A stretch of 62,153 nucleotides of DNA, filler included, from Rhabdomonas costata (lineage: Eukaryota): assembly GCA_019059605.1 (NCBI GenBank). It is 22 parts of 22 records of this genome, joined end to end, with 100 filler letters (N's around TTAATTAATTAA, not from the genome) between each part and the next. Parts side by side here need not be neighbours in the genome. Positions count along the whole stretch, not along the records: positions 14,155 to 16,884 come from JAHMHO010002218.1; 21 more parts are not named here. The stretch is one strand, 5' to 3'. This document shows, piece after piece, positions 2,940 to 39,431 of this stretch. Below the pieces are notes generated by a model, which made no database searches, was not told where the DNA came from, and was given only the letters and a program-made list of their open reading frames with translations. Every line of letters starts with the position of its first letter. Within the stretch, counting starts at the first letter, position 1. The position numbers and the translations under genes are program-made.

Positions 2940-4981
2940 GAAGCGATAGGGGCGAGGCCCACTGCGAGACAACCCCAAGAGCGCAGCTCACAGCGCGGTA
3001 CTCCGGGTGGTCACAGCCTCGAGGGACGTTCCACAGCGCAAACGCCGAGTCTCCCACGACCTTGTCCAGAACCCCGTGCCACAAACTCACTACATCGTGG
3101 ACAAGGCTAACGAAGCGACTGTGCAGGCATGCCTGCGGAGAAAAGGACCTTAAAAGAAACATCACGTCATGATAGATGTTTACCGCATTTTTCGGACGAC
3201 TGTGCGCACACGCGCACTGGTTGTTGCGCAACTACACTGGGAAAGAAAGGATACCGATCAAAAGACACGAAATAAATCGGAAACATACGCACATACGCAC
3301 ATGCACATACACAGGACGTGCGCACGTCAGTTCAACAGCCAGCGCGTCCTGCGTCCAACATACAGACATACACACATGGTGCACTTGGCCAAGACGACTT
3401 TTTCTGGGGTGGACTTGCGTGTCTCTTCCCCCCTGGGCTACCCACCCTCGATGGGGGCATGGGCCTCTGTGTGTGGCATTCACGGATGTCATTGCCTGCA
3501 CTCTTTCTGTCTGTGTGCTTCCCTTCGATCCCCAGTGCTCCTTCCCATCTGCTTGGGCTGGTCGCCGTGGTCGTTTCGGGGCGTACCTTCACGTTCATCA
3601 AAGACTTGGGTTCTCAGGTGGCGTCGATCGGGGAGACTTGTCGAGCCGAACTTCTCCGCCAGTTCTTGGCGTCCCCAGGGACGGCTAGCGTTGCATCCTG
3701 TGCTGTGGTCCACTTGAGCTGTCTTTCCCTGTGCTTGGCCATCCTGTTCTCGTCTTCGTCGGTAATCATCTGGGATCTTTACCATTCCCCCTTTGCTCTC
3801 TCTCTCTCTCTCTCTCGCTGTCTCACTTCCTACACATACATAAGTCATCTCGTCCACGTTACACACACACACACACACACACACACACTTACACGCACAC
3901 ACTCATTCAGCAGGTGCAAAAATGCACGCCTGCAAGACTGCATAAAAACCCAACTTAAACGTCTGCGAAAAAACGGGCGGGGGTTTGGTATAAAAGGACC
4001 TGTCCGAAGTCCACGGCTCCTGCAACCCCAACACCGGAGAGGTCGAAGCATGACACAGTGCATAGCAGAGGTCGCAGCAGCGGGGCCGGGCATAACGGGC
4101 AAACCAAGCCCCAGTCAGGAAACGCTGTAGTGTCCGCGTCCAAGGGATCACTAAGGACGCCAGGGATAAGCCCCAGAAGACCCATGGTGTTGGTTGGAGC
4201 CAGCGTCTGGGGCTCGGGACAGTCCTTGTCCGCGGCTAGGCGCAGGTCCCGCTGCCGTCGCACCCAAAGCGTCTCCGGCATGAACTTCCGGTATTCCCGA
4301 AGGCATTGACACAGCGTTTCAAAAGACCGCATGAGGTCGTTGAGCTCACTTAGCCGGGACTGGGGAAAATTCATGTGCTCGGTAACCTTCATCCGACTGA
4401 GCAGCTTCATGTCTCGCACGAGCTGTCTCAGGGGATGGGTCAGCAGCCTCACGAAGAGCAGCGAGAGGATACAGGTTTGGGACAGAATATGGGTGTGGTG
4501 GGGTACAGCAACAATGGATTTCATCCGCTGCATTGTACTGCATTATGACTGGAATTTTGGACAGTGGGGCGGACAGCTGCAGGACTCGAGCAATAGTGAC
4601 ATATTCCAAATTCAGCCGTTGGGATGGATTGAACTCAAAATTAGCGCGGCAAAGAGAGCAGGGGGATCGGAAGAGAATAGGATGGATGGGAAAAAAAGGG
4701 AAGTGACTTCTGCAGCTATGTGCCGAGGAAAGATGACGGGAAGACGGCCATCGTACCATGACGGGATCCTATCGAAACGCCCTGTTCCGTCTTCCGTGAT
4801 AGAAAACCATACAATAGGGGACTTCGCAAGTTGTGAAAGACGAAACAGAGGGAAGGCTGGTCGCAAGGGCACACCCCACAATACAGCAGACCACAATCGT
4901 CGTGTTGACCCGTACTCCGGAGTACACTCGGCCCGTCCAGGATCCGGTGTCCGTGGCAACCACCACAACCCAATCCAGGCC
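2940..4981 (-). CDS. Receptor-type class III adenylate/guanylate cyclase fragment (TM-HAMP-cyclase), multi-exon
   Basis: Exon from 4981: GLDWVVVATD...TTIVVCCIVGCALA. HAMP-like HPLRQLVRDMKLLSRM...SELNDLMRSFETLCQCLREYRKFMP. Catalytic segment GVLDKVVGDSAFALWNVP...HPEYRAVSCAL. Confidence 0.8.
3861..3888. repeat. (CA)n microsatellite, intronic
   Basis: Uninterrupted AC dinucleotide run. Confidence 0.9.
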
Positions 4982-13869: not shown

Positions 13870-14155
13870 GTGAGCTCTTTGTGCCAGCTGGAAGCTTCGT
13901 AGTTTTTTTATGATAAAGCTGAGACCTTTTTGCAGAACAAAAGCCGTCACAAATCGCCCCCTCTCCTGGCGACGGCAAAAACATTCGAACATTTTGTTGC
14001 TAATTTTCTTTTGAATTCTGAATTCTCCTTCGAGGGCTTATCATCAAAAAACACNNNNNNNNNNNNNNNNNNNNNNNNNNNNNNNNNNNNNNNNNNNNTT
14101 AATTAATTAANNNNNNNNNNNNNNNNNNNNNNNNNNNNNNNNNNNNNNNNNNNNT

Positions 14156-16884
14156 CGTATTTCTCGTTCGTGCGATGACTGCATGCTCGGTCCCATTATG
14201 ATTGTAACGTTTAAGAATCACGCTCTTGACGACATTCTGATGGGATGTCTTGATTTCCTTCCTGGCAACGAACGCTCTCGACTGATCCGGGTTGGAAGCA
14301 GGAGTCAGTGCGAAGCGCTCTCGGAGCATAACCTAAATTCAGTGTGCAGGTTTCACCCTGCCTACTATGAAGTGAAGAAAAAGCTGGAGAAAGCCCGCAA
14401 AGATATTGCAGCAAAGACCAACCTTAAAAACCTTAAAATGAAGAAAGTTCAAGGCTCACGTCCGCGGAGTCCAGGCAGCCAAGGCCCAGCCCCAGCGTGT
14501 GATGACGACGATGAGGACGAAAATGACGAAACAAATGTTGGTTTGCTGAGGCCTAGTTATTCGGATGCCCAGGACCGATCCCTTTTTCAGACTGCGGTTT
14601 CCGTTTGCCCAGATAAGCAATCCGAGAAGTTGCAAAATGATTTTCAAGAGCTGCAGCGTGAACTGTTGCAGATGCGAGATTTTGCTCGAGTTAACACCAT
14701 GCGACAGGCCGCAATTATCGGCTTGACAACCACGGGCTGCGCACAGATCCAGCACCTTCTTCCGAAGATTCGACCTTCAGTGCTGATTGTTGAGGAGTCT
14801 GCGGAAGTTCTTGAGTCTCAGATCGTTGCCTGCCTGCAGGATTCTCTGCAGCAGCTGGTTTTAATCGGAGACCACAAGCAGCTGCAGCCAATGGTTGCCG
14901 TGCAGGCCTTGGCTGATCATAACAATTTATGTTTGTCGCTGTTTGAGAGGCTGGTCAACAACCGTTTTCCCAGGTTCATCCTCCGATATCAACGCCGAAT
15001 GCCCCCCCAGGTGTGCGCGTTGGTCCAGCCATTTTACGAGGAAGACGGCCTTCCTGGAATAGAGAATCATGCCTCCGTTCAGCAGCGAGCGAAATCCGTC
15101 CCCGGACTTCCCAGTAATCTCTTTTTCTGGGACCATACTCTCCCGGAGGAAGCTGGCCTCAATGGGATGAGCAAAAGCCCTGCAAGCCAAGGCGAGGCCT
15201 TGATGGCTGTTCTTCTGCTCAAGCAGCTACTTGAGTGCAAAGTTGCGGCGACGAGCATTACCGTCCTTACACCATACAAGGGCCAAGAGAAGCTCCTTCG
15301 AACGTTTGCCTCGGAAGCTGGGCTACCCACCGAAATTTTCGTGACAACAATTGACCGTTTTCAGGGTGACGAGAACGATTTTATTGTGTTGTGCCTAACC
15401 AGAACTTCGAAAATGACGAACTTTCTGAAAAAGGAGAATCGGTTGTGCGTTGCCCTCAGTCGGGCGCGCCGGGCACTGTTCGTGCTGGGCAGTGCCCAGC
15501 TTCTTCAAAACCCAAAGCTCTGCCCCCACTGGAATCGGGTGGTGAAAGATCTTCAAGCAAAAGGGCTTGTGAGCCCCCACCTACCGCTGCGGTGCCCCCG
15601 GCATACTGGTCATTGCTTTAGCATTGCCCCTCTTTCCCAAGGTGAGCTTCCCATCAAGGACATTAAGGCCACTGTCAAGAATATCTTTGAGGTGTGGAAA
15701 TGTCCCGTTCCCTGTGCAAGCCGATTTGAGAACTGCGCCAATCCCGCTCATATTTGCCAGAAAACCTGCCACTCTGAGCCCCATCTGACGTGTCCTCATC
15801 TTTGCGGGAAAGTCTTGAGTTGTGTTCACAGGTGCCAAAAGAAATGCGGCGAAACATGCGGTTGCACCTTCTCCGAGCTGAAGATCCTTCCGTGTGGCCA
15901 CGAGCAAAAAATCTTCTGCGGTCGCGGCACAACTCCGTGCATGGCAGACACCTTTGTCCCTCGCCCCCACTGTGATCATGTTGCAAAGGTTCCCTGTAGT
16001 AACCAGGAAGTGAGCCTATCTTGTGGCGATTGTGAAAAAGAGCGAATTGACACACAGAGGGATCGTGCTGCGGAGCTGCTGAAGGAGGCCCAGAGTCGAG
16101 CAAGGGATCATTCCAGGCCGGCCTCAGTTGACATCCCACCGTCACATGCAGAGTACAACGAGCTTGTGCGTAAGCTGCGACCCTTTATTCCGGACGAGCT
16201 GGAGACAGAGCAGCAAGTGGTGAAAAAATCGGTAAATCCCAGCTTGGAAGCGGCCTTCTGGGCTTCAGTCAAGAAACTTGGGAATCCCAGGAGAATTGAT
16301 ACGTTGTGTTTTGTTCATCTCAAACCCCAAGCGCTCGAAAAGATACTGAAAGATGGATTCGACCTGAAGCGGGATGGATCAGTTTTCCAGTCTCACCATG
16401 GCATTTTGCTCCACACTACAATGCCCATCCCCGAATCGGGCGCTTCTCATATCCACGCGTTAATCTGCAAGGTTGCAGTTGGCCAGGCGAAGTACATGGA
16501 GCTCAAGGAGATTGATACTGCCACGATTCGGCTGCTGAGAAAATCACATGACAGCTGCGCTCAGCTACCTGATGGGAGGTATGTGGTTTTTCATCGCTCT
16601 CAAGTGCTTCCTGAGGTTCTTATTAGCAGTGCAGTTCGCAGAAAGGCTTTGATTCCGGGTCTTGTCCCCCGCCATTGGACTTCGGGTTCCGGGCTGATTG
16701 ACGTGACAAATGAGATGGCGCCGAAGCTGCTGAACCTTATCAAGGCATCCAGTCACCCCGTATGCAAGGGTGTTGATGGCAAGTCGTGTATTGCTGACCT
16801 TCACATCAAGCAGGTTCTTCGCAACCAGAACCTCACTTTACTAAGCCGTTATCGTCTTCAACAGAGCTCCATTCTCGAAGAGAA
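14156..16884 (+). CDS. ZNFX1-like SF1 (Upf1-family) RNA helicase + NF-X1-type zinc fingers + PARP-like domains; open at both contig ends, no introns
   Basis: Helicase motifs PIMIVTFKNHALD, VLIVEESAEVLE, LIGDHKQLQP, SLFERL, VLTPYKGQ, TIDRFQGDEND, NRLCVALSRAR. Cys/His-rich fingers CQKTCH...CVHRCQKKC...LPCGH. ART-like ILKDGFD...ICKVAVG...YVVFHRSQVLP. Confidence 0.9.
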
Positions 16885-37178: not shown

Positions 37179-38260
37179 TCAGGACTTGAATCCTTTGCTG
37201 TTCAGACAGTTCCGACCCAGGGGAGCGGGCAGTCCACTCCGTTGTGACTTAAAGCTGAGAAACCGTGCACACAGTTTCCGGAGAGGTGTCGAAAGAACCA
37301 GCTTGGGCAGAGCCAACCGTAAAGATATGGAACGCGAGTCAGGGCGGCAGCGCAAAGAGCGGAGGTGAAAGCTTCCGCGAAATGCGTACGGCAACGACGG
37401 AATATGCTCCATGGATGGAACGTGTTTTGAAAGTATTGCATCTGCGAGCTGCCCGGTAGGTTGTGGAGATCCAGAAGGGCAGTTAACGGGATTTCGGACA
37501 ACACCACGCATGCGAAAGAAGAGGGTGAGGAGCCATTTCCTGAGCGTTTTGTTTTCCGGCTGGCAAACCATCCACCGAGAGGCCACAATGTCGACAGCAT
37601 CGATCAAAGTTCGACATCGCTCACCCACCCACCGCCTGAAGCTTGCCAGCCACTGGGGCGGGAGGCAACTTAATGAAGCACTGAGGAGTCCATGCAGCTG
37701 CCGCCAGGGATGCGAACGTCCGCAGTAGGGCGAGCAGGGCGGCCGAATGTCTCCAACATTGGGACCCACCTGCTGAGCTGTCGCAAGGCTTATTTTTGGT
37801 TGCGCCACAATCTGTTACGCCACGTCCTGTTGGGCTCGCTGCTCACCTCGGGGTTTCGCGCCGAGAAGGAAGTCGACATTGCGGGTTTGGAAGGGCCCCG
37901 GTGCCCGATCTGTCCTCTGAGCAGACCACTGCAGCTGAGGAAGAGAAACGGAAACATACTACCACCCGTTCCAAGATGGGTCACGGTGTTTTGTGCCGTC
38001 TGGCATGGACACGCTGGGGCAACTCGGCTCCTCCGCCCTCGCGGAGCACGTCTTTGCGGACCTGTACTGCGGAGCGCGGGCGGCGTGCCAACCCGATGAC
38101 GAAGTTGAAGGACTGCAGCGGCTACTCTCCTTCCGCACTCGCCTGGCATGCTCCACCACCACCATTGTCGGGACGCAGTTGGCTCCCCGTCGGCTTGCTT
38201 CACATCGGGGACAACGGGAACCAGGAACCAAGGCGGGCTCTCGCCTCGGTGTGACAGCAC
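37179..38260 (-). mobile_element. Decayed CRE-clade-like non-LTR retrotransposon, N-terminal part of ORF
   Basis: Degenerate zinc finger CSPYCGR...LHGLL...WLASFRRWVGERCRTL and ILSKHVPSMEHIP...LALPKLVLSTPLR resemble the pre-RT region of CRE elements. Frameshifted; RT not in the contig. Confidence 0.55.
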
Positions 38261-39431
38261 AGGTCCCTGGTTCGGTTGCGAGACCGGCCATTTTTCCGCG
38301 GAAGGACTCCCAGTTTTCCCACGACCTCTTCTTCCAGACCTTCTCTCCCTCGAGACCCTTGGTCCGTTTCGGCTTGGCTCCCCAAAACATGCGTTTCTTC
38401 ACGAACGTGAATCAGCGGCCCTGGTGTTGTTTTCCGGCAAACCTATTCTTTGCCAGCTACGCTTTCTGCTTGGTGTTATATCTGGTGTATATCTGTGTAT
38501 CTGGTGTTATATCTTTGCTTCCGTTGAAGAAGTTCGGTTTTGCTTTGCAGTCTATTTTTTTTTGTATTTTCCCGGTGTTTTCTTGCCATGTTGAGCGTAT
38601 CTTTTCTGGCAATTCCAACGCAGACTTCAGGTGCTGTTTAGCTTTAACACATGCTTTCTCTCGGTTGGATGTTACGGAATACGCATATAATGCATTCCGT
38701 GCCATGAATAGAAGCAAGTAAGAGACAGAATTTTGACACGCTCCTTTCTCCACCGTTTGTGGCGCACTTTGATGGCGCTGTCTTTTTCCCGATTTGTTTG
38801 GCAGATGGAAGACCCGTATACACTTTGGTGCCCCTGAGCACGGGTGTCTCTAAGCTCCCAGGAGGGCAATCAGACAGGTGAGAATGGGAAGCAGGGTGCT
38901 TGCTTTCACATCCGCCCGGTAGTCGCCAAGAAATCTTTGGAAACACCTGTGATGTTTGCTTGAAGATTGATTTCCTTCACACTGGCCTTATCTTTTTGTT
39001 CAGACACGTTTCGATTTTGCCTGTAATAGGGGTGAATGCCGGGTTTTCGCTCCTGGTCTGTTTGTTCACTCCTGCTTGTCTCGTTTGGCGAATGTCACTT
39101 TGCAGATCTCCCCAGATGTCACCTGCCAATACCAACGCGCGCCAGGACCACCTGTTGGCCCATTCCCACAGCTCCCCAGCTGTCCCACAAAATCCCTGTA
39201 TCCACGTTGACTGCTGGCGACGATTGCGAGTGAAAAAGGTGTGCCAGGGTAAAAAATACGCTGACTCTCGGGATAGTTGTGTTTGGGGTAGGAACGGAGA
39301 CCTCATTCGACCTGCTCGCCTCCACACAAGAGAACCATGAAGTTGGCAAGCAAAGCACAGGGTATGCGCAGCGCACAGGAAAAGTCTCACTTCGTGCTCC
39401 TGAACGGGCGGGAGGATAGATCCTCTAAGGT

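Follow-up and report, generated by a model that had tools for sequence, protein, structure and literature searches.

A ZNFX1-type RNA helicase followed by a predicted pseudo-PARP and a predicted active PARP domain on a single chain in the euglenid Rhabdomonas costata

The stretch of DNA analysed here (62,153 bases, referred to below as the window) is composed of joined contigs from the genome assembly of Rhabdomonas costata, and one of these contigs encodes a large part of a protein in which a ZNFX1-type helicase, a zinc-finger stalk, a pseudo-PARP domain and an intact PARP domain follow each other in that order on a single chain; the same arrangement recurs in a distant database protein, P0003. 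A continuous open reading frame covers the helicase, the stalk, the first PARP-like domain (domain 1) and the beginning of the second one (domain 2), and an overlapping protein record, P0002, supplies the remainder. A pseudo-PARP/PARP pair on one chain with a ZNFX1-type helicase had been proposed in a preliminary description of this DNA, made from the sequence alone, and both the frame and P0002 bear this out. In our view, the contig covers the central portion and the larger share of the 3' portion of a protist gene. Its product would be an RNA helicase equipped with a stalk, a dead PARP and an active PARP, likely to act in the surveillance of foreign or selfish RNA; to this reading as a whole we would assign a probability of roughly 60%. 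The helicase probably signals by ADP-ribosylation in place of the ubiquitin ligation performed by human ZNFX1, whereas coupling to RNA, catalysis and a role in defence are what we infer.

The features in question are located as follows (positions are those of the window, and amino acids, aa, are counted along P0001, the translation of the frame).

14155..16884, no strand assigned: the sixth contig of the window, 2730 bases, between two N44-TTAATTAATTAA-N44 spacers
14156..16882, plus strand: partial open reading frame P0001, 909 codons, stop-free and open at both ends, from translation of the frame
14195..14896, plus strand: lobe 1 of a superfamily 1 (SF1) helicase, Pfam AAA_11 (58.1 bits), aa 14-247, with motifs Ia, II and III
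14501..14530, plus strand: acidic run DDDDEDENDE, aa 116-125, in a long insertion of lobe 1, read from the sequence
14936..15496, plus strand: lobe 2 of the SF1 helicase, Pfam AAA_12 (114.7 bits), aa 261-447, with motifs IV, V and VI
15587..16039, plus strand: Cys/His-rich zinc-finger region, aa 478-628, aligned up to aa 588 with the NFX1-type stalk of the human ZNFX1 chain 9q9z_A
16118..16642, plus strand: domain 1, putative pseudo-PARP, aa 655-829, from hhalign, MAFFT and language-model features
16652..16882, plus strand: first 77 residues of domain 2, aa 833-909, the helical portion at the N-terminus of a PARP catalytic domain, stopped by the contig end

AAA_11 and AAA_12 were the only Pfam families above cut-off in P0001, and the motifs of the helicase were read as TFKNHALD (Ia), VEESAE (II), GDHKQL (III), QRRM (IV), DRFQGDE (V) and ALSRA (VI), the position of Walker A being expected upstream of the 5' end of the contig. 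When P0001 was compared with all PDB chains, human ZNFX1 (9q9z_A) came first with an E-value of 2.6e-63 over aa 170-588, followed by Aquarius (1.7e-25) and Upf1/NAM7 (about 1e-23), and 24 distinct sequences were found at E <= 0.01. The residue-level alignment to 9q9z_A spans helicase motifs II to VI and then continues through the Cys-rich region to aa 588. Thus, the SF1 helicase with ZNFX1-like motifs that had been noticed previously is supported by domain models, structural database and motifs, and, as judged from these alignments, its core is nearest to ZNFX1 among the SF1/UPF1-like families. The same helicase was also matched by the PADLOC models of the Mokosh helicase MkoA (2.3e-43 and 3.2e-29).

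Human ZNFX1 is described, in the part of the preprint available to us, as an SF1 RNA helicase whose acidic insertion auto-inhibits the RNA groove (10.1101/2025.10.14.682297). This negatively charged plug occupies a place comparable to that of the DDDDEDENDE run in P0001; since the alignment there is not significant, the resemblance may be taken as a positional analogy only.

The region behind the helicase contains 21 Cys and 11 His in 170 residues, and two stretches of it fit what we take to be the NFX1-type finger pattern. No match to the Pfam model zf-NF-X1 was obtained in P0001 at E-values up to 1, nor in its C-terminal part at E-values up to 10, so the label 'NFX1-type' rests on the alignment with the ZNFX1 stalk. 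By virtue of this alignment, the NF-X1-type zinc fingers previously placed after the helicase hold despite the silence of Pfam, and a stalk of this type directly following the helicase appears to be present.

The second PARP-like domain, formerly suggested to begin at about 16660 (VPRHW) and to be cut by the end of the contig, indeed starts there (aa 837, base 16664), and the 77 residues of it encoded in the window gave no Pfam match alone. An exhaustive phmmer search with aa 600-909 against 1.84 billion representative proteins returned two proteins at E <= 0.001, P0002 and P0003. The former (472 aa, EukProt EP00906) carries the name Rhabdomonas costata, which agrees with the protist origin assumed before, and it is 100% identical to the last 314 aa of P0001 and extends them by 158 aa. 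These last 158 aa of the gene fall outside the contig, as do Walker A and anything upstream of it. Residue 1 of P0002 is residue 596 of P0001 (position 15941), an internal Met within the zinc-finger region; the record is 5'-truncated and the helicase is hidden in it, and therefore the fusion may have gone unnoticed.

Past the stalk, P0002 consists of domain 1 and of domain 2, which extends to the final residue, and PARP is its sole Pfam family above cut-off (PF00644, aa 322-470, 3.4e-23, 82.6 bits against a cut-off of 26.7). Whether the extended domain 2 possesses the His-Tyr-Glu (H-Y-E) triad had been left open in the preliminary description; the complete PF00644 domain of P0002 carries H346-Y377-E453, residues which lie outside the contig and are read in P0002 only. 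All 11 PARP domains in the alignment share four residues of P0002 (H346, G347, Y377 and Y388) without variation, and the catalytic column holds Glu in eight of these domains, including E453 of P0002 and its counterpart in P0003, and Ile in the remaining three (PARP12-like and one mollusc protein). Among solved structures the top relative of domain 2 is tankyrase-1 (2.9e-15), with E453 paired with the Glu of the AEYVIY strand. On the strength of these alignments, domain 2 is a complete H-Y-E member of the PARP catalytic family, predicted to be active. Its tankyrase likeness, together with H-Y-E, would allow polymer formation without proving it.

P0003 is a 1259-aa ENA protein encoded on a contig of 456,663 bases; aligned with P0002 over 497 columns, it shows 33% identity (E-value 4e-65). 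Its modules, AAA_11, AAA_12, a Cys-rich region, domain 1 and PARP, stand in the same order as those of the Rhabdomonas protein; the PARP domain scored 2.1e-18 (67 bits, the same cut-off), and the protein is short at its N-terminus, with no Walker A. Between P0002 and P0003, identity amounts to 27% in domain 1 (42 of 155 columns) and to 51% in the ADP-ribosyltransferase (ART) core of domain 2 (69 of 136). This difference is the pattern that would be expected of a relaxed pseudo-enzyme placed beside a constrained enzyme.

An ART-fold-like domain at about 16120-16630 had been suggested from inspection of the sequence, and several comparisons now speak for it. Aligned by hhalign with a profile of 11 PARP sequences, domain 1 reached 91.4% (P 9e-7, score 47.2, 105 collinear columns), and 89% over 169 columns in the global mode. 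With P0002 and P0003 left out, so that nine PARP domains remained, the value was 83% (P 8.4e-6, 140 columns). Shuffling of the domain 1 columns gave a mean score of 12.6 (standard deviation 2.3, maximum 20.9), and the real score was reached in none of 200 shuffles; the reversed alignment scored 14.2. MAFFT, run on whole proteins, aligned both domain 1 sequences onto the PARP domains of nine other proteins. By language-model features, domain 1 alone lay at 0.94 to PARP clusters (PARP set 19/30; recognition 2431, mark 2300), while the whole 310-aa fragment gave 0.89 and a recognition of 2123, to be read against the same mark. A secondary BLASTP match connected domain 1 of P0002 with the PARP domain of P0003 at an E-value of 0.013. 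The two-sequence profile of domain 1 against that of domain 2 gave 31% (P 5.1e-4), which is suggestive only. Taken together, domain 1 very probably adopts the ART fold.

When the AlphaFold2 model of domain 1, a weak one, was submitted to Foldseek, 37 of the 38 matches listed were PARPs or pseudo-PARPs, with TMq up to 0.56; they included PARP10 (E-value 1.5e-4, TMq 0.53), the TASOR pseudo-PARP 6tl1_B (TMq 0.54), PARP12, tankyrase and ZAP (2x5y), and the lone exception was a Toxoplasma conoid protein. These matches are consistent with the ART fold and are not independent evidence for it, because the model is weak and the alignment from which it was predicted contained PARP domains.

The three catalytic positions of domain 1, on which hhalign and MAFFT agree, read as follows.

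His position (canonical LFHGS): C-F-V720-H-L in the Rhabdomonas protein, W908 in P0003
Tyr position (canonical GIYFA): G-S-V743-F-Q in the Rhabdomonas protein, A932 in P0003
Glu position (canonical (x)E(x)IVY): G-R808-Y-V-V-F in the Rhabdomonas protein, R999 in P0003

Since the H, Y and E positions are occupied by V, V and R, domain 1 is classified as a pseudo-PARP. Substitution of the triad had been claimed earlier on the basis of three motifs, two of which, CFVHL (V720) and GRYVVF (R808), stand; the third, GILLH, has to be replaced, as both alignment methods put GSVFQ (V743) at the place of GIYFA. At the dead Glu site, the G-R-Y sequence is identical between the Rhabdomonas protein and P0003. 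The Pfam model of DUF3715 found nothing in the C-terminal 320 aa at E-values up to 10, nor in P0002 and P0003 at E-values up to 1, and a DUF3715-type pseudo-PARP was rejected as a description of domain 1 on this account. A recent tandem duplication was also considered and rejected, the score of domain 1 against its own domain 2 being not above that against foreign PARPs. The domain may thus be described as a putative PARP-fold pseudo-enzyme outside the PARP and DUF3715 models of Pfam.

One plausible mechanism of action would start with the helicase, which, to judge by its family and its conserved motifs, may bind RNA and translocate along it using ATP. The stalk, if it resembles that in the human ZNFX1 structure, would keep the C-terminal module at a fixed distance. 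The active PARP, with its intact triad, could spend NAD+ to ADP-ribosylate itself, nearby proteins and possibly RNA ends, and the pseudo-PARP, presumably unable to bind NAD+ in the usual way, might regulate the active domain or serve it as a binding partner. Prediction of a complex between domain 2 and domain 1 gave a score of 0.01 (mark 0.34), which weighs neither way. An ADP-ribosyltransferase output would in this manner stand where human ZNFX1 has its Miz/RZ ubiquitin-ligase output, and the likeliest setting would be the surveillance of foreign or selfish RNA, such as that of viruses and transposons.

The Rhabdomonas protein and human ZNFX1 both have the motifs VEE[AS]AE, GDHxQL and DxFQGxE, a stalk next to the helicase, and a two-domain enzymatic module at the C-terminus. 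According to the part of the preprint available to us, the NFX1 fingers of the human protein form a rigid stalk, and its flexible C-terminal part of about 500 residues bears Miz-like and RZ E3 ubiquitin-ligase domains; RNA binding is stated there, with reference to the work of others, to raise the E3 activity (10.1101/2025.10.14.682297). The composition of the module is where the two proteins part, the Rhabdomonas protein having a pseudo-PARP and a PARP in place of the Miz-like domain and the RZ finger, and no Miz-like + RZ-finger module was found in P0002, in which PARP was the only Pfam family to exceed its cut-off. Because the helicase and stalk features are found and the E3 module is not, we do not count the protein as an orthologue of ZNFX1 in the full sense. 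The part that would correspond to the armadillo domain and Walker A of human ZNFX1 lies beyond the contig end.

Domain 2 shares with the catalytic domain of tankyrase-1/2 the aligned H-Y-E and the lack of a helical regulatory domain; on the other hand, the zinc-binding insertion of tankyrases falls in a gap of the alignment, and ankyrin and SAM domains are not present in the Rhabdomonas protein. PARP13/ZAP and PARP12 resemble it in combining an RNA-recognition module and a PARP-fold domain on a single chain, and the PARP domain of ZAP is inactive. They differ in that RNA would be recognized by a helicase in the Rhabdomonas protein and by CCCH fingers in ZAP and PARP12, and in that the Rhabdomonas protein has no WWE domain and carries a tandem of a predicted inactive and a predicted active PARP. 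The analogy to PARP13/ZAP, drawn in the preliminary description, therefore survives in the sense of 'works like' only, as sequence comparison with solved structures brings the active domain closest to tankyrase.

An inactive ART fold followed by an active one, with the dead copy serving as an adaptor, is known from the enzymatic components of clostridial-type binary toxins and from VIP2. Their ART folds are those of the R-S-E branch, and they are secreted bacterial proteins with no helicase. The DUF3715 domains of TASOR and TEX15 also have, like domain 1, a PARP fold without the catalytic triad, and both proteins function in RNA-directed silencing, as stated in the available part of PMC10578480; domain 1 differs in giving its highest scores with the catalytic domains of ordinary PARPs. 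Mokosh MkoA has a helicase core like that of the Rhabdomonas protein, but it is prokaryotic, is accompanied by other accessory domains and possesses neither a zinc stalk nor a PARP. ZNFX1 is found among the human matches of MkoA-like proteins in the part of 10.1101/2022.12.12.520048 available to us.

A number of observations weigh against the proposed RNA surveillance by a helicase with a dead and an active PARP. The Pfam PARP model (PF00644) misses domain 1, at E-values up to 10 in the Rhabdomonas protein encoded by the contig and up to 1 in P0002 and P0003. A hidden Markov model built from the two domain 1 sequences found no PARP in the PDB at E-values up to 10, and its two matches there, at E-values of about 2, were non-PARP proteins. 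The AlphaFold2 model of domain 1 is weak even with an alignment that contains PARPs (predicted local distance difference test, pLDDT, 53.7; predicted template modelling score 0.46), and the single-sequence model (pLDDT 36.9) is unusable. Domain 1 is common to two proteins only among the 1.84 billion representatives, so its conservation is thinly sampled, and as both proteins are without their N-termini, further domains may exist. As regards domain 2, H-Y-E proves neither activity nor polymer formation: PARP3 and PARP4 carry it and yet are mono-transferases. As to the biological role, fungal and nematode relatives of ZNFX1 serve small-RNA pathways, not virus sensing.

The last point leads to the most serious alternative, for which fission-yeast Hrr1, nematode ZNFX-1 and the pseudo-PARP proteins TASOR and TEX15 are the models. 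Instead of being an innate antiviral sensor, the same protein might assist, as a cofactor, in silencing by endogenous small RNAs, in transposon silencing or in the quality control of RNA, with ADP-ribosylation marking ribonucleoprotein or chromatin targets. We consider this explanation a possible, though clearly not the favoured, one. That DUF3715 pseudo-PARPs act in RNA-directed transposon silencing, with an origin in early eukaryotes claimed for them (available part of PMC10578480), argues for it, as do the presence of the TASOR pseudo-PARP among the Foldseek matches of domain 1 and the function of nematode ZNFX-1 in inherited RNA interference (available part of PMC9276528). However, neither protein has a DUF3715 match in domain 1, and the helicase also matches the model of an anti-phage helicase of bacteria, that of Mokosh. 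The sequence itself does not separate a silencing role from antiviral sensing.

It could also be supposed that the C-terminal module serves for binding or as a scaffold and is not an enzyme. Domain 2 would then be inactive or only self-modifying in vivo despite its H-Y-E, and the ART pair would recruit partners, a role proposed for the inactive PARP domain of ZAP. None of the three triad residues is left in domain 1, which yet keeps core positions, such as G-R-Y in both proteins; hence ART folds would be retained here for non-catalytic roles. Domain 2, in contrast, keeps H, Y, Y and E, and its core is conserved to the higher degree given above, as would be expected for a constrained active site, which makes this possibility an improbable one for the module as a whole.

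A still less probable proposal denies domain 1 the ART fold altogether and takes its likeness to PARPs for a coincidence of composition or of short motifs in a linker domain of some other fold. It would account for the silence of Pfam, for the lack of PARPs among the PDB matches of the two-sequence model and for the low confidence of AlphaFold2. Against it, the hhalign score exceeds that of the 200 shuffles by about 15 standard deviations, the match is collinear across 105-140 columns and survives when the domain 2 of the proteins themselves is left out, and MAFFT and language-model features agree independently. Finally, an assembly artefact in the form of a chimera, or a contaminant gene from some other member of the culture, might be suggested by the very short contigs of the assembly and by the absence of both gene ends from this one. 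It is hardly credible when the frame is unbroken over 2727 bases, the protein of a separate record shows no difference along 314 aa, an independent protein on a contig of 456,663 bases shares the domain order, and the G+C content of the contig (0.517) lies inside the range of the window's contigs (0.403-0.551); contamination by another eukaryote keeps a small probability.

The composition of the window should be taken into account in judging the surroundings of the gene. It is made of 22 contigs of 2727-2738 bases each, apparently sorted by length and separated by the spacers given above, and sequence flanking 14155-16884 is never genomic context, because the neighbours are unrelated contigs joined to it. 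Only three stop-to-stop frames of at least 250 aa occur in the whole window, so that the frame of 909 codons is not due to chance; the opposite strand of its contig has open reading frames of at most 156 aa. The two other long frames, at 3276-4130 (plus strand, 284 aa) and 37939-38721 (plus strand, 260 aa), gave no Pfam match at E <= 0.01. A tblastn search with P0002 and P0003 detected no further pieces of the gene on the other 21 contigs (best E-values there 0.52 and 0.79), and no Rfam families were found within the window.

If the proposed RNA-surveillance helicase with an ADP-ribosyltransferase output is real, the same helicase and stalk would work with a different chemistry, which would imply that the module for sensing can be separated from the chemistry used for signalling. 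Innate immunity would here have two of its major branches, the helicase sensors and the antiviral PARPs, united in one polypeptide, and this would provide a compact system in which to ask whether RNA binding directly activates a PARP. A dead PARP fold placed in tandem with a live one is rare and may be useful in learning how pseudo-enzymes regulate their active paralogues. Moreover, the Discoba, a eukaryotic branch for which sampling is poor, would gain immune-like domain architectures. Human ZNFX1 has recently been described as linking RNA binding to ubiquitin ligation, according to the part of the preprint available to us (10.1101/2025.10.14.682297).

A broader, and rather speculative, proposal would be that the ZNFX1 helicase and stalk form an RNA sensor of ancient eukaryotic origin to which different two-domain outputs can be attached, and that a euglenid lineage (Discoba) and at least one other organism swapped Miz and RZ for a pseudo-PARP/PARP pair. 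Once foreign or aberrant RNA is bound, ADP-ribosylation of a tankyrase-like kind would be switched on, perhaps with formation of polymer or direct modification of the bound RNA, and the dead copy would act as an allosteric gate. We consider this proposal less likely than not.

The architecture was surveyed by the exhaustive phmmer search (aa 600-909) and by three word-index searches. Among the latter, aa 600-909 against longer proteins gave none at E <= 0.001 out of 1260 candidates, and the domain 1 region of P0003, against proteins of near length, retrieved only itself among 1724. Scanning with the domain 1 alignment produced 383 pattern matches in metagenome contigs and 161 in viral contigs, none of which was confirmed. 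As to the literature, no paper describing a fusion of ZNFX1 and PARP was found, as far as titles and the beginnings of abstracts indicate, and the main text of the paper on Rhabdomonas costata contains no occurrence of PARP, ADP-ribos, helicase or ZNFX. The transcript, or orthologues of ZNFX1, may be listed in the supplements to PMC8219788 and to the ZNFX1 preprint, which lay outside the scope of this comparison.

A separate matter is the wider occurrence of the PARP domain itself. In the large database, domain 2 is most closely related to kinase-PARP proteins of protists and to PARP14-like proteins of molluscs, and among the ten matches helicase domains are present in one, P0003. Three others, P0004, P0005 and P0006, end with a PARP domain of the same H-Y-E type, 36-41% identical to that of P0003, which looks like a mobile effector domain in protists. 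Their N-terminal parts are of various kinds: a Pro/Thr-rich region, a possible membrane segment and a coiled coil in P0004, a protein kinase and a coiled coil in P0005, and ankyrin repeats with a kinase in P0006.

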